From positions 1-15,305 of the forward strand of contig JBFWJG010000052.1 of assembly GCA_050253335.1 (NCBI GenBank): a stretch of 15,305 bases of DNA. Direction: 5' to 3'. How positions within the stretch are numbered: position 1 is the stretch's first letter; every line of letters starts with the position of its first letter. This stretch comes from Deferribacterales bacterium. Its GTDB lineage: Bacteria > Chrysiogenota > Deferribacteres > Deferribacterales > Geovibrionaceae. The position numbers and the translations under genes were made by a program. Shown one piece after another: positions 960 through 15,305 of the stretch. The notes beneath the pieces are model-generated. The model saw only the letters and a program-made list of their open reading frames with translations, was not told where the DNA came from and made no database searches.

Positions 960-1655
960 ATGAGACTTTTGTTGATTGAAGACGATTCGGATCTTGCGGA
1001 AAACGTAATCGATTACTTTGAGATGCAGGGCTGGAGCGTGGACTACGCAATAACCGGCGAGGCAGGCCTGCAGTTTGCGCAGGAAAACCATTATGATGCG
1101 CTGGTGCTGGATATAAATCTTCCGGGCATCAACGGTTTTGAAGTGTGCAGGCTGCTGAGGCAGAAGCTGAGGCTGAACATTCCTGTGATAATGCTCACTG
1201 CCAGAACCATGCTTAACGACAAGCTGGACGGCTTTGAATCCGGCACGGACGATTACCTCCCGAAGCCTTTTGAGCTTGCGGAGCTCAAGGTGCGTCTGGA
1301 AGCCGCTGTAAGAAGAACAAAAAACACCGTGGCGGGCGTTTTTGAGGTTGGCGGACTAAGCCTTGACCCTGAAAACGGCTGTGTTATGAGAAACGGTAAG
1401 ATAATAGATCTCTCCGGCGTCTGTTTCACCATTCTGCGCAAGCTTATGGAGGCGCACCCCGGCATAGTCTCCAAGGAAGAGCTTGAGTATGCCATATGGA
1501 AGGATCAGCCGCCGCAGACAAACGCTCTGAAAGCGCATTTCTATACCCTGCGCCAGCTTGTGGACAAGCCTTTTGAGAAAGAGCTTCTCCACACCGTGCG
1601 GGGCAGGGGGTATAAAATAGCCGAAGAGGCGCCAGAGGAGACAGATGCGGTTTAA
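960..1655 (+). CDS. OmpR/PhoB-family DNA-binding response regulator
   Basis: Receiver motifs LLIEDD, LVLDINLPG, PVIMLTAR and DDYLPKPF. Winged-helix C-terminus LHTVRGRGY. Confidence 0.95.
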   Translation: MRLLLIEDDSDLAENVIDYFEMQGWSVDYAITGEAGLQFAQENHYDALVLDINLPGINGFEVCRLLRQKLRLNIPVIMLTARTMLNDKLDGFESGTDDYLPKPFELAELKVRLEAAVRRTKNTVAGVFEVGGLSLDPENGCVMRNGKIIDLSGVCFTILRKLMEAHPGIVSKEELEYAIWKDQPPQTNALKAHFYTLRQLVDKPFEKELLHTVRGRGYKIAEEAPEETDAV

Positions 1656-3003
1656 GACCGGTCTGCGCAGCAGGATTGTTCTTGTTTTTACGGGCATAAG
1701 CCTTCTTCTCGGTTCACTTATCGTGCTCGGAGTTATTGTTTCGACACAGATAAGCGAAACCAGATCGAAACAGAGGACAATAAAAATGGAGGCGGAGTAC
1801 TATCTCCGCAGTCACATGTCCACCTTCGCCGCGCCCACATCCAACTCCTTTTTCATGCCTAAGCCTTCATCTCCGTTCATAAATGTTTACTACGGGGAAG
1901 AGCTTCTGCCTGCGTGGGCGAAAGGCGAACTGCCCGGGCTTGCTCCGGGGGAATACTCAAGAACCAGCAACCAGCAGAAGTATCATATAATTATAAGAAA
2001 CCTGCCTGACGGCGAAAGGTTCTACATGCTTTACAATGTCACCCGTCTGGATGCCAGCAGGGAGTCGCTGAGCTCTCTCAGGGTGACAATTCTGGGCGTG
2101 CTGATGCCGATCATGGTGTTCGGATTTGTTATGGGGCTTATCACCGCGCATAAGGTTATAAACCCCGTTGTGAGCCTTGCCGACTACATAAAAGAGAGGG
2201 GAACGGGCTCTCCTCTGCCGGATGATTTTGTCAGGAAGTACAGCGATGACGAGATAGGCTTTCTGGCCGCCACGCTGAAAAACACTCTTGATGAGCTTCA
2301 CGCATCGGTTGCCAGAGAAGCGGCGTTCGCAAGGGATGCCTCCCACGAACTGCGCACCCCCGTGGCGACAATCAAAGGTGCGCTGGAGCTTCTGGAAAAC
2401 TCCGGTGCGCTTGAGGATGAAAAAACAGCCCGCATAGCAGGACGGATAGGAAGAGCCACTTCGAAGATGGAGCATCTTATCAAATCCTTCCTGTGGCTTT
2501 CGAGATATGAGACACTGGGAGAGTTTGACTTTGAGGAAACGGATACCCTGACAGTTGTGAATGAAACGGTTCAGGAACACATGTACCTCATAAAAGACAA
2601 GCCGGTTAAGGTTGAAGTCGAGGAACTCTACCCGCAGAAGCTTCCTGTTGCTCCTCAGGTTATGAACATACTTATATCAAACCTTCTCAGAAACGCCTTC
2701 ACCTACACCCAGTCAGGCAAGGTGACGGTTATTATAAGGGAGAAGTGCCTCTCCGTGAAGGACACGGGAATGGGCATAAGCAGTGCGCAGCTTAACCTTC
2801 TCCGGAAAAACTCAGGCAAGTACCATGCGGAAGGCTTCGGCTTCGGCGTCGCTATCGTGAGGCGTCTCTGTTTCAGCCTCGGATGGACTTTCCTCATTGA
2901 ATCCGAAAAAGAAAAAGGCACCATGGTTACACTCTGCTACAACCAGAAAGAGGACTGCGGCTGTGATACAAAAAAAACAGCCAATGACGGAAATCTTTCA
3001 TGA
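1645..3003 (+). CDS. Membrane sensor histidine kinase (two TM helices, HAMP, HisKA, HATPase)
   Basis: Two hydrophobic segments, H-box ASHELRTP, N-box NLLRNAF, G1 DTGMG and G2 GFGFG. Overlaps the regulator gene by 11 nt. Confidence 0.95.
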   Translation: MRFKTGLRSRIVLVFTGISLLLGSLIVLGVIVSTQISETRSKQRTIKMEAEYYLRSHMSTFAAPTSNSFFMPKPSSPFINVYYGEELLPAWAKGELPGLAPGEYSRTSNQQKYHIIIRNLPDGERFYMLYNVTRLDASRESLSSLRVTILGVLMPIMVFGFVMGLITAHKVINPVVSLADYIKERGTGSPLPDDFVRKYSDDEIGFLAATLKNTLDELHASVAREAAFARDASHELRTPVATIKGALELLENSGALEDEKTARIAGRIGRATSKMEHLIKSFLWLSRYETLGEFDFEETDTLTVVNETVQEHMYLIKDKPVKVEVEELYPQKLPVAPQVMNILISNLLRNAFTYTQSGKVTVIIREKCLSVKDTGMGISSAQLNLLRKNSGKYHAEGFGFGVAIVRRLCFSLGWTFLIESEKEKGTMVTLCYNQKEDCGCDTKKTANDGNLS

Positions 3004-3033
3004 AGTATTATTATTTTGCGAGGTCAGCTTTTT

Positions 3034-5427
3034 ATGAACGGTTATGACGGAATAAGCAGAAGAAGCCTGCTGAAAATGGGGCTTTTTTCTTCCGCTATGA
3101 TGATGAGCGGAGCCTATGACCAGCTTTTCGCCATGACAAATTCCGCGGGCGGCGTAAAAATTCCCCATGCGACTCATTTCGGCGCGCTCAAGGCAGTTGT
3201 TTCCGGCGGCAGGTTCATGGGCACGGAACCCCATGATAATGACTACGCTCCGACTTCGATGCTGTACAGCCTTTCGGAGTATGTGCACTCTGGCAACAGA
3301 ATTAAATACCCCTGTGTCAGAAAAAGCTTTCTGGAAGGCAAAAGGGACACCTCGCTGAGAGGGTGCGAGGAGTTTGTCAGGGTTGACTGGAAAACCGCTC
3401 TGGATCTTGTGGCGAAGATACTTCAGGATGTTAAGAAGAATTACGGCAATGAATCAATATACCGCCCCTCGTTCGCCGGATGGTCGCATCCCGGGGTAAT
3501 AGGCCGTCCCGACATACTTCAGGGAAGGTTTCTGGGTCTTCTCGGCGGCTTCACGGACACCATAGGTGACTATTCCGCAGGAGCGGCGACTCATATTCTC
3601 CCCCATGTCATGGGCGGTCTTGAGATATACAGCTATCAGACTACATATGAAATGATAGCGAAACACACAAAAACAATGGTTCTCTGGGGTTCTGACCCAT
3701 TCAAAACTTTCAGGATAAGCTACTCCGTTCCGGATCATGCCAGAATCGAATGGTTCGTGAAAATGAAGAACGCCGGAATGAAGTTCATAAGCATAGATCC
3801 GGTTTACACCGAAACGGCAAAGTTTATGGATGCGGAATGGATTCCCATTAAGCCGAACACCGATGTGGCAATGATAATGGCTGTCTGTTTTGAGCTTTAC
3901 ATAAGCGATGAATACGACAGCTCTTTTATAGATAAATATACCGTAGGCTTTGATATTTTCAAAAACTACCTGACAGGGAAGAACGACGGCGTGCGCAAAA
4001 GCCCAGAATGGGCAGAGAAGATATGCGGCATAAGCGCAGGAACAATAAGGCGCCTTGCCCGCGAATTCCTTAAGTCGGGCACGCTTCTCAACAGCCATTA
4101 CGGCTGTCAGCGGGCTGACAACGGCGAGCAGTTCCACTGGGCGCTGATCACTCTGGCCTGCATGCTGGGGCATGTGGGAACCCCCGGGGGCGGATACCAC
4201 TTCGGAAACGGCGGGCTTGCCTACTCCGGCAAGGTTATGCCCCGCAGAATGTCTCAGGGGCGAAACCCCGCCAGAACTGTTATTCCCGCGTCCAGAATAG
4301 GCGAGATGCTTCTGAACCCGGGAAGAACCATCGACTTCAACGGAAACAAGATTACCTATCCAAAAATATCCCTGCTTCACAACATGGGCTCAAATATAAT
4401 TACCCAGCACCCGAACACCAACGAACTGCTTGAAGGTATGCGGGGAGTGGAGAACATAATAACCCATGAGATTGTCTGGAACGCCACTGCAAGATACTCG
4501 GATATTGTTCTGCCTGTGACATCCACCTTTGAACGCAACGACATAACCTACGGTGACCCTTATTCAAACACCCATGTCTGGGCTATGAAGCAGGTTGTTC
4601 CGCCTCTGCACGAAGCGCGGGATGACTACTGGGTGCTTTCTGAGCTGGCAAAAAGGCTCGGATTCGAAAAGGAATTTACGGAAGGACGCACACAGATGGA
4701 CTGGATACGCTGGAGCTATTCAAACGTTGAGACGGCTGTTCCCTTTGAGAACTTCTGGCGGCAGGGTTTCCTTGAGTTCAAGGTTCCTTCAAAAAACAAA
4801 AGCTTTGTGCGGCTTGCGGATTTCAGGAAAGACCCGAAAAACTCGCCTCTTTTCACTCCGTCCGGCAGGATCGAGATTTTTTCCGAAAAAGTCGCCAGCT
4901 TCGGTTATGACGACTGTCCGGGTCACCCCACATGGATTGAGCCTAAGGAATGGCTCGGCGCGGATATGGCGAAGAAGCATAAGTATCACCTTCTTTCCAT
5001 ACACCCTAAGCACAGGCTGCATTCCCAGATGGATAATATTTCCCTCAAGGAGCAGTACAAGATAAAAGGCAGAGAGCCTGTCGTGCTTAATCCGGATGAT
5101 GCGAGAGAGCTTGGAATAAAGGACGGCGACCTTGTCGAAGTCTATAACGACAGGGGGGCGATAATCTGCGGAGCACTGGTAAGCGCAACCATGAGAAGGC
5201 ATGTCGTCAGGGTTGACGAAGGCGCCTGGTACTCTCCGGAGGATGCCTGCGGGGTCGGGGCAAGGTGCCTCAGCGGAAACGTGAATGTTCTCACGCCCTC
5301 CAGAGCCACATCAAAACTGGCTCAGGCGTGCGCCGCTCACAGCTGTCTTGTATCGTTAAGAAAAGCTCAGGGAAAAATAAAAAACAACGATGCGTACAAA
5401 AATCCGGTTGTAATAACGGAAGAATAA
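3034..5427 (+). CDS. Tat-exported molybdopterin S-/N-oxide reductase, TorA/DorA/BisC family (no Fe-S cluster)
   Basis: Tat motif SRRSLLK. Family motifs HATHFG, RIKYPCVRKSFL, Mo-ligand Ser in GDYSAGA, QRADNGEQ, TPSGRIEI, CPGHPTW, HPKHRLHSQ and TSKLAQ. There is no N-terminal Cys cluster motif. The start is set at ATG 3034 (GAGGT at 3020-3024) rather than TTG 3016. Confidence 0.92.
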   Translation: MNGYDGISRRSLLKMGLFSSAMMMSGAYDQLFAMTNSAGGVKIPHATHFGALKAVVSGGRFMGTEPHDNDYAPTSMLYSLSEYVHSGNRIKYPCVRKSFLEGKRDTSLRGCEEFVRVDWKTALDLVAKILQDVKKNYGNESIYRPSFAGWSHPGVIGRPDILQGRFLGLLGGFTDTIGDYSAGAATHILPHVMGGLEIYSYQTTYEMIAKHTKTMVLWGSDPFKTFRISYSVPDHARIEWFVKMKNAGMKFISIDPVYTETAKFMDAEWIPIKPNTDVAMIMAVCFELYISDEYDSSFIDKYTVGFDIFKNYLTGKNDGVRKSPEWAEKICGISAGTIRRLAREFLKSGTLLNSHYGCQRADNGEQFHWALITLACMLGHVGTPGGGYHFGNGGLAYSGKVMPRRMSQGRNPARTVIPASRIGEMLLNPGRTIDFNGNKITYPKISLLHNMGSNIITQHPNTNELLEGMRGVENIITHEIVWNATARYSDIVLPVTSTFERNDITYGDPYSNTHVWAMKQVVPPLHEARDDYWVLSELAKRLGFEKEFTEGRTQMDWIRWSYSNVETAVPFENFWRQGFLEFKVPSKNKSFVRLADFRKDPKNSPLFTPSGRIEIFSEKVASFGYDDCPGHPTWIEPKEWLGADMAKKHKYHLLSIHPKHRLHSQMDNISLKEQYKIKGREPVVLNPDDARELGIKDGDLVEVYNDRGAIICGALVSATMRRHVVRVDEGAWYSPEDACGVGARCLSGNVNVLTPSRATSKLAQACAAHSCLVSLRKAQGKIKNNDAYKNPVVITEE

Positions 5428-5442
5428 TATTAAGTAATAAAG

Positions 5443-5976
5443 ATGAAACACGCCCTCACTATTTGTTATATATCATTAATAAGCGTTTTATGCATTTTCA
5501 CTGCTTCCGCCTCAGAAAAAGGCTGGCTGAATAAAAATATAGAGCTCACTGACGCAAAAGGGAAAAAGACCGCTCTGCTTCAGTTCGGCTCACCCATCAG
5601 CGACAGCAGGCTCACGGCATGGATGAGAAAGGGTGAAAAGACCCTCTACTCCGAAGACGGAAGAGTGACTTACGGCATACTCTATGACCCCTCTGCCGCT
5701 GTGGAAACAGGGAGAACAAGGCAGGGCATGCGCGAAGTCATGATCAAAGGCTATATAAAAAGCTCATATATCTCGCCCACTCTGGAAGATTCTCTCTCGG
5801 AGTACGAGGATAAGTATTACGATATATGCAGCTCCTGCCACTCCGCCATAAACCTCAGCAGGTTCAGCATCGACCAGTGGGCGGGAATTATGAACTCAAT
5901 GAAGACCCATGCCCAGATATCCGACAATGATTCAGCGGGACTGTACAGGTATATAAAACTTATTATTACCGACTAA
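5443..5976 (+). CDS. Periplasmic monoheme cytochrome c resembling the C-terminal domain of TorC/DorC
   Basis: Signal peptide ending ASA. A single CSSCH is followed by 'F...QW.GIMNSM', which contains the likely distal Met. It lies 15 nt downstream of the molybdoenzyme gene. Confidence 0.82.
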   Translation: MKHALTICYISLISVLCIFTASASEKGWLNKNIELTDAKGKKTALLQFGSPISDSRLTAWMRKGEKTLYSEDGRVTYGILYDPSAAVETGRTRQGMREVMIKGYIKSSYISPTLEDSLSEYEDKYYDICSSCHSAINLSRFSIDQWAGIMNSMKTHAQISDNDSAGLYRYIKLIITD

Positions 5977-6027
5977 TCTCATTTCTTTAATACTTTTCCA
6001 TTTTTCAGAAACTAAACTGACGTTCTC

Positions 6028-6068
6028 TTTACCTAGTGTTTACCCTTAGTGTGTTAAAAAAATCACAA
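6028..6068 (+). promoter_or_regulatory. dmsA promoter region: tandem TTTAC repeats plus a CRP/FNR-family-like palindrome
   Basis: TTTAC at 6028 and 6039, and TGTTA-AAAAAA-TCACA at 6052-6067 (9/10 match to TGTGA-N6-TCACA). Confidence 0.5.
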
Positions 6069-6130
6069 TTCATTCGGAACATGATCTGTTACGGCGACGG
6101 TTGTTCAACCGGCAAACGAGGAGGAAGATT

Positions 6131-8764
6131 ATGTCAGTTTTTCAGAAAGAAAAGCTTAAAAATTTAATGAGTGTTTCCAGACGCTCGTTCCTTAAATGGA
6201 GCGCAGTTCTGGGAACCGCTGCCACGCTTGGCTGCGGAAGCTCAAGCAGCAGTGATGACAATGACGGCGATACCCCCGGAGCTCCGTCATTCGACAGGGA
6301 AGTATGGAACGGCTGCAACGTTAACTGCGGAAGCCACTGTCCCCTGAAACTTCATATTAAAGACGGTGTTGTCGTCAGAGTAAGCACCGACAACGAATCC
6401 CCCGACGAATACGGCGATTACGGCACGAACTTCCAGTTCCGCGCCTGTGTCCGCGGACGTTCGATCCGTCAGAGACTCTACAACCCTGACAGGGTTAAAT
6501 ACCCCATGAAAAGAGTCGCAGGCTCAGTAAGGGGTGAAGGCAGATATGAAAGGATTTCCTGGGAACAGGCAATTGAAGAAATATCTGCTAAAATGATTGA
6601 TGTAAAAGCAAACTACGGTCCCGCCGCTTTCTATATCCAGTACGCAACGGGTACAATTGACGCTGCTTTCGCAAAATCATGGACACCTGCCGCAACCCCC
6701 ATCGCAAGGCTTCACAACCTTTGGGGCGGATGGCTGAACCATTACGGCAACTACTCAACACCCCAGATCGGGCCCTACCTTCCCATGCTTCTCGGCGGTT
6801 CCAGCCAGAACACCATCACGGATGCTGTGAACAGCAACCTTGTGGTTCTCTGGGGCAACAACCCCGCGAACACCCGTATGGGCTCAGGCGCACACTACAC
6901 ATACCACCTTCAGAAAGCGAAGGAGAAAAACCCCAACCTCAAGTTCATCTCAGTCGACCCGCATTACAATGATACGGCGATTGCACTCGAGGCTGACTGG
7001 ATAAGCATCAGACCCGGAACAGACACAGCTCTTGTGGCGGGAATGGCTTACTATCTCCTTGATGAAGGGCTTCTTGACGAGGCATGGCTCAATGAACGCT
7101 GCGTAGGATGGGACGAAGCTTCCATGGCAGGAATAGTTGAGGCCACAGGCACAGCTCAGGGCGCGCCCGAAGGCACAGAGCCCGCAGTGCCCGCCGGAAG
7201 CTCATACAAATCATACCTGCTCGGACTCGGCGCGGACGCAACTGCCAAGACTCCCGAATGGGCATCAGACATCACAGGCATTCCTGTTTCCGTAATCAAG
7301 GCTTTTGCAAAAAGGCTGATAGATGAAAAACCCGCCATGATTATTCAGGGCTGGGGACCCCAGAGGCATTACCTCGGCGGAAACAACTGCCGTGCGATAA
7401 GCCTTATGGCTATCCTCACCAAAAACATAGGCATTCAGGGCGGCGGTTCCGGTTCACGCGAGAGCGGAGCTTCTGTGAGCCTCAGCTTCAGGGGCTGGTC
7501 AACCACTTTCCCCTCTAACCCTGTTTCTCATACCATTTCACACTTCACATGGTATCAGGCGATCCTTGACTACGCGTCAATGACGGGAAGAACATGGGGC
7601 GTGAGAGGACTGGCAACTCCCGATACTCCCCTGCCCACACCCATTAAGTTTATATGGAACTACGCCGGCAACTGTATGACAAACCAGCACGGCGACATAA
7701 ACGAAACAATGAAGATGTACAAAGATGAGTCAAAATGCGAATGCATAGTGACAATCGAAAACAGCTTCACACCCTCTGCGCTTGTTTCCGACTACATTCT
7801 GCCCGACTGTACAAACTGGGAGCAGAACGACGTAACCACAAACGCAGGCGGAAACACAGCCATTATGGTATTCGACACCAAAGCTGTTGAGCCTCTCTTC
7901 GAGTGCAAGACAATTTATGAAATGCTCTCTCTCATTGCTGACAAAATCGGCATAAAAGAGCAGTTCACAGAAGGCAGAACGCAGGACGAATGGCTTGAGT
8001 TCCTCTTCAACGAAATGCTCAGAATAAACGGAGATCAGGGTGTTTTTACTGCCGAGAACAATCTTGACACATACGCCAAGGCAAAAGCCGCCGGCATAGT
8101 CAAGAAATATGTTTCCACTGCAACACCCAGTGTGGCGTTCAAAGCTTTTGTCGATGATCCGATTACAAACAAAGTGTCCACCCCCTCAGGCAAGTTTGAG
8201 ATTTTCTCAAAAAGGCTTTACAACCTCAGCCACCAGTGGGTTCTTCCCGGAGACGGACTGGACAAAATATGCGCTATCCCTGAATTCCACGAAACTCAGG
8301 ACGGCTTCACAAGCACGAAGCGCGCTGAATATCCCTTTCAGGTTGTGGGACACCACTATAAACAGAGAACGCATTCAACCTACTACAACACATCCTGGAA
8401 CAGGGAAGCAAACCCTCAGACCGCGTGGATCAACTCAGGCGATGCCGCAAATCTCGGTATTGTTCACGGCGACACAGTGGAGATCTGGAACGACAGAGGC
8501 AAGGTAAGAGTTAAAGTTAAAGTAACTCCGAGAATTATGCCCGGCGTTATTGCTCTTCCTCAGGGCGCATGGTACAACCCCGGCGGCAAGTGGTATAACA
8601 GCAAGGTTGAACACTCAGGCAGCATCACGGCAGACGAAGTCGGCAACAAAGATGTGATCGACCACGGCGGATGCAACAACGTTCTTACAAGCGTGCGCCC
8701 TGAAGCATTCTCCAAAGGTAACTGCCAGCACAGTGTTCTTGCTAATATCAGGAAAGTCGGCTAA
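6131..8764 (+). CDS. dmsA: DmsA/YnfE-family molybdoenzyme catalytic subunit, predicted Tat-lipoprotein
   Basis: Strong GAGGAGG RBS before ATG 6131. Tat motif SRRSFLK is followed by TLGC and a Ser/Asp linker. FS0 motif CNVNCGSHC...RACVRGRS, Ser ligand YGNYS, plus TPSGKFEI and HYKQRTHST. Confidence 0.93.
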   Translation: MSVFQKEKLKNLMSVSRRSFLKWSAVLGTAATLGCGSSSSSDDNDGDTPGAPSFDREVWNGCNVNCGSHCPLKLHIKDGVVVRVSTDNESPDEYGDYGTNFQFRACVRGRSIRQRLYNPDRVKYPMKRVAGSVRGEGRYERISWEQAIEEISAKMIDVKANYGPAAFYIQYATGTIDAAFAKSWTPAATPIARLHNLWGGWLNHYGNYSTPQIGPYLPMLLGGSSQNTITDAVNSNLVVLWGNNPANTRMGSGAHYTYHLQKAKEKNPNLKFISVDPHYNDTAIALEADWISIRPGTDTALVAGMAYYLLDEGLLDEAWLNERCVGWDEASMAGIVEATGTAQGAPEGTEPAVPAGSSYKSYLLGLGADATAKTPEWASDITGIPVSVIKAFAKRLIDEKPAMIIQGWGPQRHYLGGNNCRAISLMAILTKNIGIQGGGSGSRESGASVSLSFRGWSTTFPSNPVSHTISHFTWYQAILDYASMTGRTWGVRGLATPDTPLPTPIKFIWNYAGNCMTNQHGDINETMKMYKDESKCECIVTIENSFTPSALVSDYILPDCTNWEQNDVTTNAGGNTAIMVFDTKAVEPLFECKTIYEMLSLIADKIGIKEQFTEGRTQDEWLEFLFNEMLRINGDQGVFTAENNLDTYAKAKAAGIVKKYVSTATPSVAFKAFVDDPITNKVSTPSGKFEIFSKRLYNLSHQWVLPGDGLDKICAIPEFHETQDGFTSTKRAEYPFQVVGHHYKQRTHSTYYNTSWNREANPQTAWINSGDAANLGIVHGDTVEIWNDRGKVRVKVKVTPRIMPGVIALPQGAWYNPGGKWYNSKVEHSGSITADEVGNKDVIDHGGCNNVLTSVRPEAFSKGNCQHSVLANIRKVG

Positions 8765-8778
8765 GAGGGAGGCTCAAA

Positions 8779-9390
8779 ATGGCTAAACAATACGGATTTT
8801 ATGTAGATACAAAGCACTGTACCGGATGCAAGGCGTGCATGAACGCCTGTAAGGACAGACAGGGCCTTCCCGAAGGCACCAAGTTCAGAAAAGTTTTCGA
8901 GTTTGCCGGCGGAAGCTGGCAGAATGCTGATACTGCTGCTTACAAGCCTGATGTATTTGCTTTCTATGCTTCCATGGGCTGCAATCAGTGCGATTCTCCC
9001 GCATGTCTTGATATCTGCCCCGGCAAGGTATACAGCAAGCGCGAGAGCGACGGTGTTGTGACCTACAACCCCTCGACATGCATCTCCTGCTTTGCGTGCA
9101 GAGAAGTATGCCCGTTTAAAGCTCCTTCGTATAACTACGAAAAAGGGCACATGACAAAATGCGTTATGTGTACTGATGAAGGATCGGCAGACGGCGTGCC
9201 TGTTCCCGCATGTGTGAAGGCATGTCCTTCAAGAGTTCTTGATTTCGGCGAAATCGATGCTCTTAAAGCAAAATACGGCAGCGTGCAGTCGATAAGCCCG
9301 TTCCCCGCGGCCACAAAGCCCAATATCGTTTACAAAGCCCACAAAGACGCTGACGGCGGAGTACAGGCCGTTAACATCGAAGAAATCTAA
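8779..9390 (+). CDS. dmsB: DmsB-family 4x[4Fe-4S] electron-transfer subunit
   Basis: QYGFYVD, CTGCKAC..AC, CNQCDSPAC..CP, CISCFAC..CP, KCVMC...PACVKACPSR and a TKPN tail. GGAGG RBS. Confidence 0.95.
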   Translation: MAKQYGFYVDTKHCTGCKACMNACKDRQGLPEGTKFRKVFEFAGGSWQNADTAAYKPDVFAFYASMGCNQCDSPACLDICPGKVYSKRESDGVVTYNPSTCISCFACREVCPFKAPSYNYEKGHMTKCVMCTDEGSADGVPVPACVKACPSRVLDFGEIDALKAKYGSVQSISPFPAATKPNIVYKAHKDADGGVQAVNIEEI

Positions 9391-9399
9391 ATAAACACA

Positions 9400-9448
9400 G
9401 GAGAGGGGGAAACCCCTCTCCGCTTTTAAACCGTCTGACGGTTTTTTT
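9400..9448 (+). terminator. Two inverted repeats between dmsB and the chaperone gene (terminator or mRNA-stabilizing hairpins)
   Basis: GGAGAGGGG-GAAA-CCCCTCTCC (9400-9421) is followed by gctttt, then AAACCGTC-T-GACGGTTT running into a T tract (9428-9448). Confidence 0.65.
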
Positions 9449-9467
9449 CATTTGGAAGGAGAAGTTT

Positions 9468-10148
9468 ATGGATAAGCTGCTTAATAAAGACTGCGAAAAG
9501 GTTTATCAGGATCTTCTGGGAGTCACCATAGCTCACAGTTTTATGAATAAGCTGTTTATTGAGGCGCCCACGAAAGAATTTATCGAGAACCTTAAAATCA
9601 CCCACATTCTGGACAGCGACTGGCCCATGTGCGAAAGCCTTGAGTCCGTTACCGGCCTCGGTATGCTGAAAAGATATCTTGCGGCATATACAGAAAGCAG
9701 CTTCGGTGAGCTCACGGATAACTATAATGCCCTGTTCATAGGCCCGGGCGCTCTGCTCGCACCGCCATGGGAATCTGTTTACACAGAGCAGGACAAGACG
9801 CTTTTCGGTAAATCAACCCTTGATGTAAGGGAAATGTACAGAAAAAACGGTCTCCAGATAAACAAGCTCCACAAAGAGCCCGATGATCACATATCTTATG
9901 AATGTGCTTATATCAACTTTCTTTCCCTGAAGGCAATTGAGGCTTTCGAGAAGGAAGAGAGCGAAAAGTGCTGTGCTCTTCTTGAGGATATGCGCCTTTT
10001 TTACGGCCTTCACATGACGAAGTGGGTGATCGAGTTTGCCGATAAGGTGATCGATAACTCTGGAACAGAATTTTACAAAGGAGCGGGATGGCTTCTGAAG
10101 GGCATGATCAAGGAAACATCTTTACTGCTTAATAATATTGACAATTAA
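9468..10148 (+). CDS. dmsD: TorD/DmsD-family redox enzyme maturation chaperone
   Basis: Motifs LFIGPG..APPWESVY and EPDDHISYE, plus 'H..W...F' and FY. AAGGAG RBS. Confidence 0.92.
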   Translation: MDKLLNKDCEKVYQDLLGVTIAHSFMNKLFIEAPTKEFIENLKITHILDSDWPMCESLESVTGLGMLKRYLAAYTESSFGELTDNYNALFIGPGALLAPPWESVYTEQDKTLFGKSTLDVREMYRKNGLQINKLHKEPDDHISYECAYINFLSLKAIEAFEKEESEKCCALLEDMRLFYGLHMTKWVIEFADKVIDNSGTEFYKGAGWLLKGMIKETSLLLNNIDN

Positions 10149-10185
10149 TCAAGACCCCTGTTGGTACCATTAACATATATTTCTT

Positions 10186-10220
10186 TAGAAAAGGCACGCC
10201 TGACCAGCGTGCCTTTTCTA
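10186..10220. terminator. Probable bidirectional intrinsic terminator after dmsD
   Basis: Perfect 14-bp inverted repeat TAGAAAAGGCACGC-ctgacca-GCGTGCCTTTTCTA. Confidence 0.75.
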
Positions 10221-10253
10221 TTTCAGGGGAGCGTTCCGCAAGGCAGCGCATAT

Positions 10254-10287
10254 AAAAAAAGACGGCAGACTTCAAATCTGCCGCCTT
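10254..10287 (-). terminator. Intrinsic terminator of the minus-strand small-peptide transcript
   Basis: The minus strand reads AAGGCGGCAGA-tttgaag-TCTGCCGTCTTTTTTT. The stem has one G-U pair that forms only on this strand, followed by a T7 tract. Confidence 0.8.
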
Positions 10288-10380
10288 CATCTGGTCACTC
10301 CCCTTACATATCTAGGAGTGCGGGCTGCGGGATGGTGATGAAGGGAAAGCCCGGAGGCTTCCCCGAAAATTATCTGAAAG

Positions 10381-10503
10381 TTATTTCATTTCAGTCTGAG
10401 TCTGGTTGTCAGCGGGTTTAGTTTCTTCTTTGTCGCCCGCGAAAGCGGCTACGCTTGTTACAACCATCATGCCGAGTACAAGTACAGTGATAAGTTTTTT
10501 CAT
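10381..10503 (-). CDS. Unannotated 40-aa secreted peptide MKKLITVLVLGMMVVTSVAAFA-GDKEETKPADNQTQTEMK
   Basis: Read manually from ATG 10503-10501 to TAA 10383-10381. RBS GGAGG-aagaa-ATG. Classical Sec signal (MKK, hydrophobic core, AFA site). Has its own promoter and terminator. Confidence 0.82.
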   Translation of the reverse strand: MKKLITVLVLGMMVVTSVAAFAGDKEETKPADNQTQTEMK

Positions 10504-10537
10504 TTCTTCCTCCGAATAAGTTAATTGTATTATATAG

Positions 10538-10554
10538 AGCAGGATATGTGCCAA
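10538..10554 (-). promoter_or_regulatory. Sigma54 (-24/-12) promoter for the small peptide gene
   Basis: The minus strand reads TTGGCACATATCCTGCT, which is GG-N10-GC with a full TGGCAC -24 element. It sits about 35 bp upstream of the ATG, and a sigma54 activator is encoded in the divergent operon. Confidence 0.82.
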
Positions 10555-10630
10555 TTACCGCTAATGTTTATAAGTTCTTGCTGTAGAAGCTTAATATCAA
10601 GCGAATGCGTGTGTCGTGAAACAATCAGGT

Positions 10631-10702
10631 GTATGGATTTACCTTCACTGCTTTTCTGATATTCCTTATTGCAGGGGATTTGGGACGTATGGTAAACCAT
10701 AC
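10631..10702. promoter_or_regulatory. Candidate upstream activator sequences for the sigma54 activator
   Basis: Perfect palindrome GTATGGT-AA-ACCATAC (10687-10702) and a degenerate copy GTATGGATTTACCTTC (10631-10646), roughly 80-150 bp upstream of the -24 element. Confidence 0.5.
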
Positions 10703-10803
10703 AGAGTCCGGAATTGATAAAATCGTTTACCTGCAAATAATTATGGCTAGCGGCAGTGCAAATTGACTGTTGTGCGCACTGTCTCCGTGTGATAAATTAA
10801 ATC

Positions 10804-12246
10804 ATGAAGCTGACAGGCATATTCGGCAGGCTCGCCCTGACAAACCTCATCCTTCTGGTGCTCATTTCTTATTTCATAATCTACGTATTCCACAAAACAG
10901 AGCAGATTCACCGGATTCTTCATGAAGTCACGTCCGTTCATCTCCCTGTTATGGCTGATTCAGACAAGCTGAACACATATGTTCAGAGAATGAACGAGTT
11001 CAGGCTGAAGTATCAGATTACCGGAGACAGGGATTTTCTCGACAGATTCACAGGTTTCAGGAATGAAGCAGCAACAGTGAACGCCCGCCTTGCCGAAACT
11101 GTTATGGGTAAATCAAAATCGGATATTTATGAAAAGGTTGACGAACTATTCTCCGAATTTGAGGATATGTCCGAAGCGCAGATAAACAATATGGAGCATG
11201 ACATTGCCCGGACCAACAGGGAGATTGACGATGCCTCTTTCAGGCTGGCTCAGCAGACAGCGCTTCTTAAAGACACTGCCGATTCCGAGTGGCGCAGCAA
11301 GCTTGAACGCTCCAGCCGAATGGTGGAGAGGGTTCTGCACAGGTCGGTTCTGTTTATGGCTGTCTGCATTCTGGGCGCGGCGGCGGTTGCCTTCTTCAAC
11401 ACGCGCACAATAGCCCGCCCCCTGCGAAAACTGGGCGAAAAGACCAACGAAGTCGCGGCGGGCAGATTCCCCGAGAGGTTCTCCCTCAAGGCTCCCTATG
11501 AGATAGAGAATCTCGCATCTGACTTTAATATAATGATAGCAAGGCTTAAAGAGAGCAGGGAGCAGAAGGAGGAGTTTGTGAGCAATGTTTCCCACGAGCT
11601 TAAAACACCTCTTTCATCCATTAAGGAAGCGGCGCAGATGCTCAGGGAGGGCGCATTTGATAACGAGCCCGAGAGCTCCCGCAGGCTGCTTGAGATAATA
11701 GATGCCGAATCCGAGCGCCTCATAGCCTCCGTGAACGGTATTATTGAAATTTCAAGGCTTGATATAAACGATGCTCCCTACGAAAAGAAAAGATGCAGTG
11801 TGGGGCTGATACTGACGGAGATTGTGAGAAAGACTGCGCCCATTGCATTAAATAAAAAAATAAACGTGACGGTTAATATAGCGGGAGATCTGCCGGATGT
11901 TCACGCGGACGCGGAAATGATAAGCCGTGCGGCGGAAAACCTGATCGGAAACGCGCTGAAATATACTCCGGAAAACGGAACTGTCAGCATCAGTGCGGAA
12001 AAAACAGGTGAACGCCTCCTGCTGGTTTCTGTCAAAGATAACGGAAGGGGAATATCAGAGGCGGATCTTCCACACATATTCGAGCGCTACAGAAGAGGGC
12101 GCAATCAGCAGGGCGATGTCAGGGGAACCGGACTGGGGCTTGCCATCGCAAAGAAGATAATTTCCCGACATGGAGGAGAAATATGGGCAAAAAGCAGACC
12201 GGGGGAAGGAAGCGAATTTCTTTTCACTCTGCCGCTCTCTTTCTGA
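10804..12246 (+). CDS. Sensor histidine kinase, GlrK/QseE-like
   Basis: Two TM helices flank a helical periplasmic domain. HAMP, H-box VSHELKTPLSSI.E, N-box NLIGNALKY, DNGRG and GTGLGLAI. First gene of a kinase-lipoprotein-NtrC triad. Confidence 0.92.
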   Translation: MKLTGIFGRLALTNLILLVLISYFIIYVFHKTEQIHRILHEVTSVHLPVMADSDKLNTYVQRMNEFRLKYQITGDRDFLDRFTGFRNEAATVNARLAETVMGKSKSDIYEKVDELFSEFEDMSEAQINNMEHDIARTNREIDDASFRLAQQTALLKDTADSEWRSKLERSSRMVERVLHRSVLFMAVCILGAAAVAFFNTRTIARPLRKLGEKTNEVAAGRFPERFSLKAPYEIENLASDFNIMIARLKESREQKEEFVSNVSHELKTPLSSIKEAAQMLREGAFDNEPESSRRLLEIIDAESERLIASVNGIIEISRLDINDAPYEKKRCSVGLILTEIVRKTAPIALNKKINVTVNIAGDLPDVHADAEMISRAAENLIGNALKYTPENGTVSISAEKTGERLLLVSVKDNGRGISEADLPHIFERYRRGRNQQGDVRGTGLGLAIAKKIISRHGGEIWAKSRPGEGSEFLFTLPLSF

Positions 12247-12806
12247 TTTTTTCACTGCTCGGCTGTTCGCCCGCGGCAAAGGAGAATGTAGGCGAAAGCT
12301 GTCTGCTTTTTCTGAAACTCGGCGATTATGAAGGAGTTATGACAATGCTCGACAGAGCGGAAGATATAAGGGAAGATGAAAAGCTGTTTATGCGGGTTCT
12401 GGTGGTCTCTGACCCCGGAAGCCCGTATTTCAGTGCGGAGGATGTGAAAGTTTACGCAGACACTCTCACGAACCTTTTTCCTGACAGCCCGTACACGGTG
12501 CAGGCTTCTGTTGTGGCAGGGCTGATGGAGAAATATTCGCAGTCCGCCTCGGAAGCTGAGAATCTGGGAATCAGGCTGAACGGGCTGAATGACAGTCTCA
12601 CGGAAGCGCACACTGAAAACAGCTCTCTGAAAGAGACCGCTGAGGAATATCAGAATATCAGCTCCGAGCTCCGCAGGGAAAACGGAAGGCTCCTTGCTCA
12701 GGAAAGAAAGCTGAGGCATGAGCTTGATGAAATGAAGGCTAGGCTTGAGGCGATCAAGGAGATAGACCTGAAGATCAAGCAGAGCAGGGAAGGCGGGCGT
12801 GACTAG
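12183..12806 (+). CDS. Lipoprotein with C-terminal coiled coil, QseG/YfhG-like accessory protein
   Basis: Basic N-region, hydrophobic core and lipobox LLGC (Cys28). Coiled-coil tail ending RLEAIKEID, similar to the QseG C-terminus. GGAGG RBS at 12172-12176. Located between the kinase and the regulator. Confidence 0.78.
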   Translation: MGKKQTGGRKRISFHSAALFLIFSLLGCSPAAKENVGESCLLFLKLGDYEGVMTMLDRAEDIREDEKLFMRVLVVSDPGSPYFSAEDVKVYADTLTNLFPDSPYTVQASVVAGLMEKYSQSASEAENLGIRLNGLNDSLTEAHTENSSLKETAEEYQNISSELRRENGRLLAQERKLRHELDEMKARLEAIKEIDLKIKQSREGGRD

Positions 12807-14142
12807 GATTCTGGCAGTTGACGATGACCCCAACCTGCTTGAGATAATAAGACTGAGGCTTAAAAGCTCCGGCTTTGAGGTTTTCGCGGCGGACTGCGGC
12901 GAGGCGGCGCTCAGGCTTCTGGAAACAGAAGTGTTTGACGCGGCTGTGCTGGACATGAAGCTGGAAGGCGAGACCGGGCTTGAAGTATTTGAGAATATAA
13001 AAAAGGCTGATCCTGAGCTTCCGGTAATTTTTCTGACAGCATACGGAACAATAGACGAAGCAGTGGAAGCCATGCGCCGCGGCGCATTCGGCTATCTGAC
13101 AAAACCCTTTGACCACAGGGAGCTTGTTATTCAGGTGGAGAAAGCGGTGGAGAAGAACAATCTCTCCCGCGAGAATCTCCGCCTGCGGAGTATGCTCCGT
13201 GAAACGCTCATAGCCGGAAACATCATAGGCCGGAGCGAAAAAATCCGCAGACTCAATGAGCAGATCCTCCTCGCCGCGGGGAGTGACGCCAGTGTGTATA
13301 TTCAGGGGGAGTCAGGCACAGGCAAGGAGCTTGTGGCTAAGATGCTCCACATGAGCAGTGCGCGGAAAGACAGGCCTTTTATAGCCATAAACTCGTCTGC
13401 CATCCCCGAAAGCCTTATGGAGAGCGAGCTTTTCGGCTATGAGAAAGGAGCGTTCACAGGGGCGAACCGCAGGAAAAAGGGCTTCTTTGAGCAGGCGCAG
13501 GAGGGCACGCTGTTTATGGACGAGGTGTCGGAGATGCCCCTGTCCATGCAGGCAAAACTGCTCCGTGTGCTTGAAAACAGGGAGGTTTACCCTCTGGGGA
13601 GCGAGAAGAAGGTCAAGCTTGATATAAGGCTCATCTCCGCCTCCAACAAGGAACTCACAGAGGAGATAAAGAAAGGGGCTTTCAGAGAGGATCTCTTCTA
13701 CCGCATACACGTAATACACCTGCGCATCCCGCCCCTTCGTGAGCGCAGGGAGGATATCCCCCTTCTCGCCGGACATTTTATCAGAATGTATTCGGGCAGA
13801 TACGGCCGCAAGGCGGAGCACCTGTCACCTCAGGCATTTGAGAAACTGATGACATATGACTGGCCGGGCAATGTGCGGGAACTGGAAAACACAATCGAGA
13901 GTGCGGTTGTTCTCACCACAGGCGCGGAGATCGGCGCGGACGCAGTGCGCCTTTCATCGGACACATCTGCACTTCAAAGCTACAAGGAAGCCAAAAGGGA
14001 GTTTGAACAGCGCTATGCCAGAGAGCTTATGGAAATGAGCAAAGGAAATGTCAGCAAGGCTTCCAGAATGGCAGATGTCTACAGGGCGGATCTGTACGAA
14101 CTGCTAAAGAAATACTCAATAGACCCCGAAAGTTTCAGATAA
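12799..14142 (+). CDS. glrR: Sigma54-dependent (NtrC-family) response regulator, GlrR/QseF-like
   Basis: Receiver domain ILAVDDDPNLL. Walker A GESGTGKE, GAFTGA, Walker B LFMDEV, FREDLFYR and WPGNVRELEN. The C-terminal 'YKEAKREFE..Y....KGNVS.A' HTH resembles GlrR. GTG start. Confidence 0.9.
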   Translation: MTRILAVDDDPNLLEIIRLRLKSSGFEVFAADCGEAALRLLETEVFDAAVLDMKLEGETGLEVFENIKKADPELPVIFLTAYGTIDEAVEAMRRGAFGYLTKPFDHRELVIQVEKAVEKNNLSRENLRLRSMLRETLIAGNIIGRSEKIRRLNEQILLAAGSDASVYIQGESGTGKELVAKMLHMSSARKDRPFIAINSSAIPESLMESELFGYEKGAFTGANRRKKGFFEQAQEGTLFMDEVSEMPLSMQAKLLRVLENREVYPLGSEKKVKLDIRLISASNKELTEEIKKGAFREDLFYRIHVIHLRIPPLRERREDIPLLAGHFIRMYSGRYGRKAEHLSPQAFEKLMTYDWPGNVRELENTIESAVVLTTGAEIGADAVRLSSDTSALQSYKEAKREFEQRYARELMEMSKGNVSKASRMADVYRADLYELLKKYSIDPESFR

Positions 14143-14977
14143 GCGAAACCATCCTGTCCACAATGAGCAGCAGAAAAAACGAGGCAATGGATATGTTCAG
14201 TATCATAAATGCCTTATCGGTATCAGCGCGATACCTTAGAAAGAGAATATATGTGACTGCGGCGAAAACGGCGTGGATGAAGTAAACAGGCTTGTTCAGA
14301 TAAATCCCCGCCGGAATGGCGAAAAAGAGGGATGTCGCATAACCGGACATCCACACATTTATGAATTTCCGTGTTTTCAGTTCCCCGAATGTCCCCGTGA
14401 GAGTTTTGAAGCCCGCCTTTGCGTAATCCTCGGCGTATTTGAAGGATAAAAGCGCAAAATGAGGTGTCTGCCAGATGTAGAGTATGCCCGCAACAACAAA
14501 TATCCGCATGTCAGAAGGGCTTCCCCCTGCGGCAAAAAAGCCGATTAAGGGGGGCAGAGCGCCGGAGAAGGAGCCTGTCATGAGGGCGAAGGGTGTCTGC
14601 TTTTTCATCGGGGTGTAGAGAAAGTTATATACAAAAACCGCGGCGGCGCCGGAGGCGAAGAGAGGGATATTCTTCATGCGGAGAATGAGCGTGAACGCCA
14701 CGGCAAGGATGATCGTGGCGGACATCAGCGCCTCCTCCGGTTTTATCCTGCCTGAGGGGAGCGGACGGTTTTTTGTACGCTCCATGAGCGCATCTTCTCT
14801 CCGTTCCTGCCACTGGTTCAGGGCGGAACAGCCCGCCGCAAGGAGAACCGCCGCAAGGATTCCTAGAAGATGTTTTTCTCCTATGACCGGAGAAAAAAGG
14901 CAGGCCCCCGCAAAAGCGGAAAGGCCTACCAGCAAAGTAACTTTAATTCTTATAAGTTTCAGATAATCAGTGTTCAT
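14135..14977 (-). CDS. ctaB: Protoheme IX farnesyltransferase (heme O synthase, CtaB/CyoE)
   Basis: Motifs ALNQ..E...D.LMERTKNRPLPSGR, YTPMK, GALPPLIG, WQTPHF and DYAKAG. Multiple TM segments. Confidence 0.95.
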   Translation of the reverse strand: MNTDYLKLIRIKVTLLVGLSAFAGACLFSPVIGEKHLLGILAAVLLAAGCSALNQWQERREDALMERTKNRPLPSGRIKPEEALMSATIILAVAFTLILRMKNIPLFASGAAAVFVYNFLYTPMKKQTPFALMTGSFSGALPPLIGFFAAGGSPSDMRIFVVAGILYIWQTPHFALLSFKYAEDYAKAGFKTLTGTFGELKTRKFINVWMSGYATSLFFAIPAGIYLNKPVYFIHAVFAAVTYILFLRYRADTDKAFMILNISIASFFLLLIVDRMVSLI

Positions 14978-15305
14978 TCATCCTTCAGTGTGCTGAAAAA
15001 TTCGATGAGCGCTTTCATGTCCTCATCGCTGAGTTCATAGGAGGGCATCATTCCGCCGTCGTAGCCGTCCACGATATAATCATCCGGATTCTTAATTGAG
15101 TCAATGATATATCTTATGTCAGCGATTACTTCGATCTTCTTGCCCATATGCTCCGCGGTGAGCTTTCTGTCCATCATGTTTTTGAAGCTAGGGCCGACTA
15201 TCTCGCTTCCGTCTGTGGAGTGACAGCCGAGACAGCCCTCATTTTCGGCAACCTTAGCACCCGCCGCCCCTTTCTTCTCCATGACCATGCCGCCCTTGAA
15301 GAAGC
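14974..15305 (-). CDS. c-type cytochrome domain of the type fused to caa3 oxidase subunit II (likely partial at the window edge)
   Basis: GCLGCHSTDGS..VGPSFK, 'YI..SI.NP...IV.GY' and distal Met in MMPSY. The frame stays open to the window end, and the gene overlaps ctaB by 4 nt (ATGA). Confidence 0.8.
   Translation of the reverse strand, partial: FFKGGMVMEKKGAAGAKVAENEGCLGCHSTDGSEIVGPSFKNMMDRKLTAEHMGKKIEVIADIRYIIDSIKNPDDYIVDGYDGGMMPSYELSDEDMKALIEFFSTLKDE

Follow-up and report, generated by a model that had tools for sequence, protein, structure and literature searches.

Head-to-head with a three-gene operon in a 15,305-nt stretch of DNA from a Deferribacterales bacterium (contig JBFWJG010000052.1 of assembly GCA_050253335.1, hereafter the window) lies a minus-strand gene of only 40 codons that is preceded by a sigma-54 promoter and is predicted to encode a Sec-exported micropeptide. 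The operon encodes a sensor kinase, a lipoprotein and a sigma-54 activator and, judged by tree and profile comparison, is a true relative of QseE-QseG-QseF (GlrK-QseG-GlrR, collectively QseEGF), as a sequence-only reading of this DNA had supposed. That reading also proposed to look beside such operons for a conserved short signal-peptide gene with a -24/-12 box, and one is present in all 11 operon-bearing genomes found. Whether a QseEGF-type sensor here has the micropeptide gene as its main local output, with a product that acts by mass, is a joint proposition that we regard as evenly balanced.

The micropeptide gene and its promoter

The sigma-54 promoter (TGGCAC-N5-CTGCT) occupies 10553-10538 on the minus strand, and transcription would start near 10527. 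It is followed by a ribosome-binding site GGAGG at 10513-10509 (GGAG in 11/11 loci), the 123-nt gene at 10503-10381 and an intrinsic terminator at 10288-10252, consisting of a hairpin (10288-10258) and a T run. All these elements and the opposing operon lie where the sequence-only reading had put them, except that it extended the promoter box to 10554, which adds one flanking T. When the intergenic region was resampled 20,000 times with a Markov model, the full unit occurred in 0 cases and the sigma-54 box alone in 153. The unit, described as missed by the open reading frame (ORF) track, is real, but the gene is already public: an identical protein is listed by NCBI and in other collections, and its orthologue is Dacet_1621, a 'hypothetical protein' of Denitrovibrio acetiphilus. 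Residues 1-22 (10503-10438) form a predicted Sec signal peptide with a basic N-terminus, a hydrophobic core (mean hydropathy 2.5 over residues 4-19) and Ala-Phe-Ala just before residue 23, where cleavage is predicted by eye and from hydropathy; the signal lacks cysteine, and the product is thus not a lipoprotein. The mature part (10437-10381 including the stop codon) would be a hydrophilic, acidic peptide of 18 aa, 2.05 kDa and pI 4.5. No Pfam or NCBIfam family, EF-hand included, matches the micropeptide at cut-off, and no paralogue of the gene or its untranslated region (UTR) was found in its own genome.

Genomes of the order were searched for the kinase (41 genomes) and the activator (61 genomes), and each was found in 11, all belonging to one family of anaerobes, that of Denitrovibrio, in which 11 of 16 members from three genera carry the operon. 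In all 11 loci the sigma-54 box lies 238-252 nt from the kinase start and is followed by a ribosome-binding site and a signal-peptide ORF of 40-69 aa, and the genes flanking unit and operon differ between the loci. The order kinase-lipoprotein-activator is kept in the window and its 10 relatives (the lipoprotein frame of locus L007 is below the ORF length cut-off used and hence unlisted), and a hairpin 3' of the ORF can be read by eye in the relatives' sequences. A search of the 16 family genomes with a promoter-ribosome-binding site-ATG pattern matched the micropeptide locus in all 11 operon-bearing genomes and gave three other matches, each to an exported protein of greater length; with the pattern reversed, none of the 16 genomes gave a match. 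The short peptide gene was not found in the five operon-less family genomes, in which there were only weak matches inside frames of 185-363 aa. Two operon-less family genomes encode exported proteins rich in Gly, about 140-155 aa long, that are sigma-54-driven and have different upstream sites (L215 in G010, L216 in G012).

What has been conserved in the peptide itself? The mature part is conserved in make-up and not in sequence. Across genera it comprises 18-47 residues, hydrophilic (grand average of hydropathy -1.07 to -2.23) and mostly acidic (pI 4.3-6.5), without aromatic residues or cysteine and with at most five bulky hydrophobic residues, and in cross-genus alignments compared with shuffles 0/38 pairs exceed z 3 (mean 0.73). 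The signal regions are 46% identical across genera, five of the six invariant residues that follow the start Met fall within residues 3-22 whereas the mature part contains none, and small residues occupy positions -3 and -1 of the predicted cleavage site in 11/11 peptides. Unlike the mature peptide, the kinase and the C-terminal motif of the lipoprotein are conserved across genera. The best ESM Atlas score (0.83), to hypothetical proteins, is at lead level only.

Codon bias and low synonymous change provide the strongest evidence for translation of the ORF, and for heavy translation at that. With 20 ribosomal-protein genes of this genome as reference (auto-called gene set), the micropeptide gene has a codon adaptation index (CAI) of 0.88, as compared to 0.66-0.79 for ribosomal-protein genes and 0.56-0.59 for the operon genes. 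Its log-ratio score was reached by 0/2221 first-40-codon windows, 1/2221 random windows and 0/41 signal-peptide starts, its CAI by 10 of the 2221 random windows. Using this genome's weights the micropeptide gene stands above the kinase gene in 11/11 loci by log-ratio score and in 10/11 by CAI. Moreover, synonymous change to three genus relatives amounts to 8, 8 and 17% for the micropeptide, 10, 16 and 19% for ribosomal proteins and 26, 41 and 52% for the kinase. Since the codon bias exceeds that of ribosomal-protein genes, a bulk, very abundant product would be expected.

Upstream of the promoter are two predicted palindromic activator sites which, like a structured 3' UTR of about 125 nt, had escaped the sequence-only reading. 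The proximal site (10630-10647) and the distal site (10686-10703) lie 94 and 150 nt upstream of the sigma-54 box, and each matches TGT-N12-ACA in 5/6 positions. Palindromes chosen as the best matches inside preset windows are found at -92 to -95 and at -146 to -151 in 11/11 loci with the consensus TGTA-N10-TACA, close kin of which have been given for QseF as TGT-N12-ACA (PMC6075780) and TGTC-N10-GACA (PMC3045617). An IHF-like match with at most one mismatch is present at -28 to -30 in 10/11 loci, the window being the exception, in a region of 62-78% AT. A matrix built from other genera only ranked the proximal site of the window first genome-wide (21.5 bits). Among the top 40 of its 75 hits a sigma-54 box accompanies just one further site, that of lpxC, which was considered as a second target and rejected: its A-rich box near -90 persists in six operon-less genomes (G004, G007, G010, G012, G013, G016) and resembles the DVU2934/Dde_3003 site (PMC4045070, PMC3333781). 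Because the lpxC box persists without the operon, the micropeptide gene would be the only strong target among the genome's top 40 matrix hits. In its own right, lpxC (G000:C2:86947-87052; L191-L210) has a sigma-54 box in 19/20 genomes of the order checked, mostly with an A-rich palindrome near -90 like that of Desulfovibrio DVU2934, independent of the operon. Together, the conserved sites and the promoter pattern make the divergent sigma-54 promoter the likely target of the operon, which agrees with the earlier proposal of an exported peptide gene as sigma-54 output in place of GlmY. A strict site-plus-promoter pattern was found in 3/401 Desulfobacterota genomes, none of them with a micropeptide.

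The operon, its relatives and its surroundings

The three plus-strand ORFs overlap at their ends. The kinase (480 aa, 10804-12246) has two transmembrane segments, a periplasmic four-helix bundle, HAMP, HisKA and HATPase domains; the lipoprotein (207 aa, 12183-12806) has a lipobox cysteine at position 28, a TPR-like head, a 100-residue C-terminal helix and an LExxKEID end motif; and the activator (447 aa, 12799-14142) has the REC-AAA+-HTH architecture and is assigned to QseF/GlrR by domain and profile search and by tree. An extended -10 element, here at 10790-10798 and 5 nt before the kinase ATG, is found in 11/11 loci with a gap of 5-6 nt and no Shine-Dalgarno sequence, so the operon transcript is probably leaderless and sigma-70-driven.

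In a midpoint-rooted FastTree of 146 activators a clade with local support 1.0 unites 10 family activators with 24 from Desulfobacterota, 40 from Gammaproteobacteria and one enterobacterial GlrR, and includes, of 62 other activators, only L057, which is GlrR-like itself, and none of nine paralogues. The activator scores 450 bits against the NCBIfam GlrR model, the top among all families, and 370 bits against ZraR. It misses the GlrR equivalog cut-off of 763 bits, which appears to mark enterobacterial GlrR only, as 0/300 sampled Gammaproteobacteria pass it. The kinase sensor, a four-helix bundle in the predicted structure, matches the gammaproteobacterial sensors in profile-profile comparison (97.8%, E 1e-12, 197 columns), the profile of which matches 9M08, 9M07 and 8JWD, and the whole-kinase profile aligns to 9M08_C over 1-457. 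The sensor-only profile gave no direct QseE match, and in a structure search with the sensor model 9M07 ranked 43rd (Z 11.4, root-mean-square deviation 2.9, 108 aligned). The lipoprotein profile matches the middle genes of the gammaproteobacterial loci (96.3%, E 1.5e-9) with the C-terminal motif aligned; by eye, this motif can be aligned with that of Buttiauxella QseG, direct single-sequence comparison being weak (20.5%). QseG was not listed in sequence or fold searches of the PDB with the lipoprotein, and the top rows of the structure search were TPR and BamD proteins. More widely, lipoproteins of 170-240 aa that combine a TPR-like head with a C-terminal LxxLKxID motif are numerous (P0009-P0150; 670 representatives at E<=0.001, including some other TPR proteins). 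Three of five clusters looked up are labelled BamD or TPR.

The QseEGF cluster has been reported in Pseudomonadota (PMC12691602). All three genes are intact in 22 of 40 hand-picked Desulfobacterota loci, and by these sequence comparisons the family extends beyond Pseudomonadota to the Denitrovibrio family and Desulfobacterota. As the position of the family activators is patchy and they are nested among Desulfobacterota sequences in the tree, the comparison suggests that the operon may have been acquired by transfer from Desulfobacterota. A scan of the genome collection with the activator alignment yielded mostly unrelated activators, and 50 of those 80 loci were used as handles only. Eleven Desulfobacterota loci (L118-L128) have a QseG-like lipoprotein after a 445-507-aa protein (52-73 bits against the kinase profile) and lack an activator gene farther downstream; they may represent another output module that shares the lipoprotein.

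Which genes do related activators control elsewhere? Among 40 gammaproteobacterial GlrR loci, taken from the top-scoring matches in a sample of 300 Gammaproteobacteria, a sigma-54 box with a GlrR-type site is found nearby in 23 and a box alone in one more. The products include 10 small exported EF-hand proteins, one of which is a fusion with BON. Pfam identifies an OmpA-domain lipoprotein in L156 and OpgG in L174 and L177; L159 was assigned to the former by likeness and L178 to the latter by eye. The remaining proteins are one large lipoprotein, a 93-aa low-complexity exported protein (L155) and two of uncertain kind. In 20 downstream regions of Desulfobacterota, sigma-54 boxes are found ahead of genes for a BON protein (L136), a 126-aa protein predicted to be exported (L149) and receiver-domain proteins, and the upstream sites of L136 and L149 are of the same type as at the micropeptide promoter. 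The Desulfobacterota outputs near the operon (L136, L137, L139-L141, L149, L229) also include an exported protein that is Cache-like by eye. Five gammaproteobacterial GlrR-type promoters (L152, L154, L165, L185, L186), situated 130-190 nt after the activator gene, seem to drive short transcripts without convincing ORF; these are about 100-350 nt long, end in a terminator-like hairpin, have no Rfam match and are candidate new small RNAs (sRNAs). Four of them lie just before a gene that we take to resemble ybgC of the tol-pal operon. Judged from these promoters, a small exported output is common for the GlrR activator family, and GlmY would be only one of several QseEGF outputs, most of them exported envelope components. 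The suggestion that the circuit was undescribed is thereby qualified: no description of the wiring was found in the open-access literature, a search that left out the supplements of PMC12691602, which list loci, but the kind of output makes the wiring less unique than supposed.

The remainder of the window holds genes of other kinds. Two molybdopterin oxidoreductases of 803 and 887 aa, the larger of which carries a TAT signal, are encoded in the region 3016-10148 together with a cytochrome-c-like protein, a 4Fe-4S subunit and a DmsD/TorD-like chaperone; a hairpin (10189-10217) closes this gene group. An OmpR-type pair lies at 960-3003 and an isochorismatase-family protein at 80-700. On the minus strand at 14135-15288 a UbiA-family prenyltransferase and a cytochrome c domain are encoded convergently with the activator gene, with an overlap of 8 nt at the end of the latter.

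What the peptide may do

How could such a circuit operate? In Salmonella, membrane-anchored QseG is described as spanning the periplasm and keeping QseE on, and periplasm expansion, outer-membrane damage or proteolysis have been proposed as off signals (PMC12691602). By homology, the outer-membrane lipoprotein would reach across the periplasm and activate the kinase, and under normal growth conditions the micropeptide gene would be switched on, in keeping with its codon bias. The phosphorylated activator, to judge from the conserved sites, would bind the two palindromes and fire the sigma-54 promoter, and a short, strongly translated mRNA would yield a Sec-exported, disordered and mostly acidic peptide of 2-5 kDa. 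This peptide would then act by abundance and composition, with no need of a specific binding site, as periplasmic filler, cation buffer or holdase for the envelope, which is the weakest step. A bulk envelope component is the simplest explanation, since the product appears abundant, exported, conserved in composition and evolutionarily interchangeable with EF-hand, BON, OmpA and OpgG genes; that the micropeptide is an abundant disordered periplasmic peptide acting by mass in envelope upkeep has, in our estimate, about an even chance of being correct.

Several observations weigh against this explanation. Within the genus 38-39 of 39 residues are the same, which exceeds the need of a purely compositional role; one relative's peptide is near neutral (pI 6.45); and 18 residues would make a very small holdase, one that might be lost by degradation or leakage. 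With this genome's weights, the micropeptide CAI in D. acetiphilus is 0.58 as compared to 0.59 for the kinase. The divergent micropeptide output also seems to be lineage-restricted, as 27 Desulfobacterota loci with a well-scoring kinase have no divergent promoter-peptide unit within up to 1.3 kb upstream (under 800 nt in three of the 27). On the favorable side, transcription has a weak hint in contigs of RNA-labelled metagenomic libraries, which cover about 10314-10509 and are absent over 10665-11286, but the contigs are unstranded and from relatives, and the runs were selected by this stretch. Missing cover over the activator sites carries no weight. Run X2 has a depth of 53 over the micropeptide gene (listed neighbours 2.5-6.2) and X1 one of 3.4 (2.1-6.3), an unrepeated difference in a measure unused for ranking genes, and X3 and X4 are one data set of doubtful RNA/DNA status.

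Near invariance within the genus together with divergence between genera would also suit a specific feedback regulator or genus-specific ligand, ZraP/CpxP- or pheromone-like, that binds the kinase sensor or the lipoprotein tip, as group-specific peptide signals are typically invariant within and divergent between groups. The tight linkage in 11/11 loci and the TPR-like head of the lipoprotein, a fold that often binds peptides, speak in its favor. Furthermore, QseEGF is stated to be without a clear negative regulator (PMC12691602). However, the peptides share no core across genera, offer few bulky hydrophobic and no aromatic residues, vary in length even within one genus (45-47 aa in g3) and show the codon bias of a bulk protein; no conserved processing or transport gene adjoins them, the neighbours differing between loci, and homologous systems use unrelated exported outputs. 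Co-folding of the 47-aa mature peptide of L010 with dimers of its kinase sensor and lipoprotein, run without alignments, gave a score of 0.00, which speaks neither for nor against binding. With a mature part unconserved across genera and a codon bias indicating an abundant product, the ligand or feedback role raised by the sequence-only reading is not favored and we consider it unlikely. Could instead the signal peptide or an uncleaved membrane form be the active part, as an MgrB-like regulator or as a load on Sec and signal peptidase, with the tail as filler? The concentration of invariant residues in the signal region, its alignability across genera where the tails cannot be aligned, and its complete identity within the genus (22/22) would be accounted for, but the pattern is generic, as other signal peptides of the genome look alike, a good cleavage motif is kept throughout, and the tail is likewise conserved within genera, which leaves this possibility very unlikely. 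That the gene is merely the functionless remnant of a longer exported target such as an EF-hand or BON protein would accord with the shortest forms being in this genus and with longer exported proteins driven by related systems; given conservation and codon bias at the level of ribosomal proteins, frame and regulatory sites intact in 11/11 loci and no EF-hand or other Pfam match at cut-off, it is hardly credible.

The RNA might be an output in addition to the peptide, as dual-function mRNA or as 3'-UTR-derived sRNA, in parallel to GlmY. The structured part of the 3' UTR (10364-10296, minus strand) consists of a hairpin (10364-10343), a C/U-rich single strand (10342-10325) and a second hairpin (10320-10296), has a fold z of -3.5 with the terminator included, and is conserved, single strand included, in four genus genomes; it is possibly an sRNA or a stability element. 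Hfq and RapZ are encoded in the genome, and the short non-coding transcripts that five gammaproteobacterial GlrR promoters seem to drive provide a precedent. The Hfq matches fall in two loci (G000:C2:53278-53709 and C17:28687-28872), one of which is a frame of 171 aa that matches Hfq twice in tandem. In addition, the first 19 codons show no synonymous change in four genomes, but this is equalled by 19/66 ribosomal-protein windows; a constraint at the RNA level, considered as the cause of the DNA conservation, is unneeded as ribosomal-protein genes show a like pattern. The element was not seen in the seven loci of other genera, where a terminator follows soon after the stop codon, an Rfam scan of 10100-10850 gave nothing near a gathering score, and only 3/25 pairs covary in four sequences. 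No predicted mRNA target of the segment is better than shuffles, the best (-28.2 kcal/mol) lying within the range of eight of them (-24.5 to -28.6). An additional output at the level of RNA is thus rather unlikely.

A variant of the mass-action explanation, which we deem about as unlikely as an RNA output, takes the peptide as a protein stand-in for osmoregulated periplasmic glucans (OPG): made in bulk for as long as QseG contacts the kinase, it would accumulate as a trapped anionic solute, swell the periplasm and so pull the membrane-spanning QseG ruler off the kinase. If true, this would constitute a physical negative feedback on periplasm width or osmolarity without specific binding, supply the off-switch missing from the account in PMC12691602 and explain the link of the activator to OpgG, EF-hand and BON genes. 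OpgG was found in none of the 16 family genomes, with or without operon, which is compatible with a glucan stand-in and does not discriminate. The signal that QseEGF senses and the way in which it is switched off are described as open questions (PMC6075780, PMC12691602). A single minimal and apparently very abundant output makes them testable with a 123-nt gene, two sites, one promoter and the cultured relative D. acetiphilus. The circuit hints at a sensor that serves, in this family, for filling or buffering the periplasm and not for signalling, and a peptide in which composition is conserved but sequence is not would represent a novel type of small periplasmic effector.

Comparison with known systems

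The closest known system is the enterobacterial glmY-qseE(glrK)-qseG-qseF(glrR) locus, which has homologous kinase, lipoprotein and activator genes in the same order and, as here, a sigma-54 target adjoining the operon with sites of the TGT-N12-ACA type (PMC6075780, PMC3045617, PMC12691602). The enterobacterial target is GlmY, upstream and in line, whereas here it would be a divergent gene for a micropeptide predicted to be Sec-exported. The target is not GlmY, as the region has no Rfam match near a gathering score and the transcript would carry a conserved, codon-optimised ORF. There are two sites of the TGTA-N10-TACA type instead of three TGTC-N10-GACA sites in enterobacteria (PMC3045617), and the host is outside Pseudomonadota, the range given in PMC12691602. 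The EF-hand, BON, OmpA and OpgG genes of non-enteric Gammaproteobacteria share with the micropeptide gene the activator clade, a sigma-54 promoter with upstream sites and a small exported product, and in L182 and L189 also the divergent layout; the micropeptide differs by having no EF-hand or other domain, by being much shorter and by its unconserved sequence.

ZraP-ZraSR and CpxP-CpxAR likewise combine a gene for an exported protein with a divergent two-component system, in the case of ZraSR with sigma-54. Both ZraP and CpxP have a folded helical structure and conserved motifs, and a folded conserved mature domain of this kind has no counterpart here, the mature parts having no Pfam match at cut-off and being unalignable across genera; the activator, moreover, groups with GlrR and scores higher against it than against ZraR. 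In pheromone systems of the PapR, Phr and Agr types the active core is conserved and genes for processing or transport are linked, whereas the micropeptides have no common core and the genes linked to them differ between loci. More similar in kind is Asr of E. coli, which like the micropeptide is small, exported and disordered (the last two here predicted), with no homology claimed. Asr is reportedly longer and basic and under a different regulator, as compared to 18-47 mostly acidic residues here. By composition and codon bias the micropeptide would fit an Asr-like class of abundant proteins; Asr, when induced, is among the most abundant proteins and supports outer-membrane integrity (PMC10746267). 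OPG, with a modelled periplasmic level of 20 mM (PMC10961723), are small periplasmic polymers that act by mass, as proposed for the micropeptide, but are glucans and not peptides, and opgG itself stands behind a GlrR-type promoter in L174 and L177 and probably also in L178.

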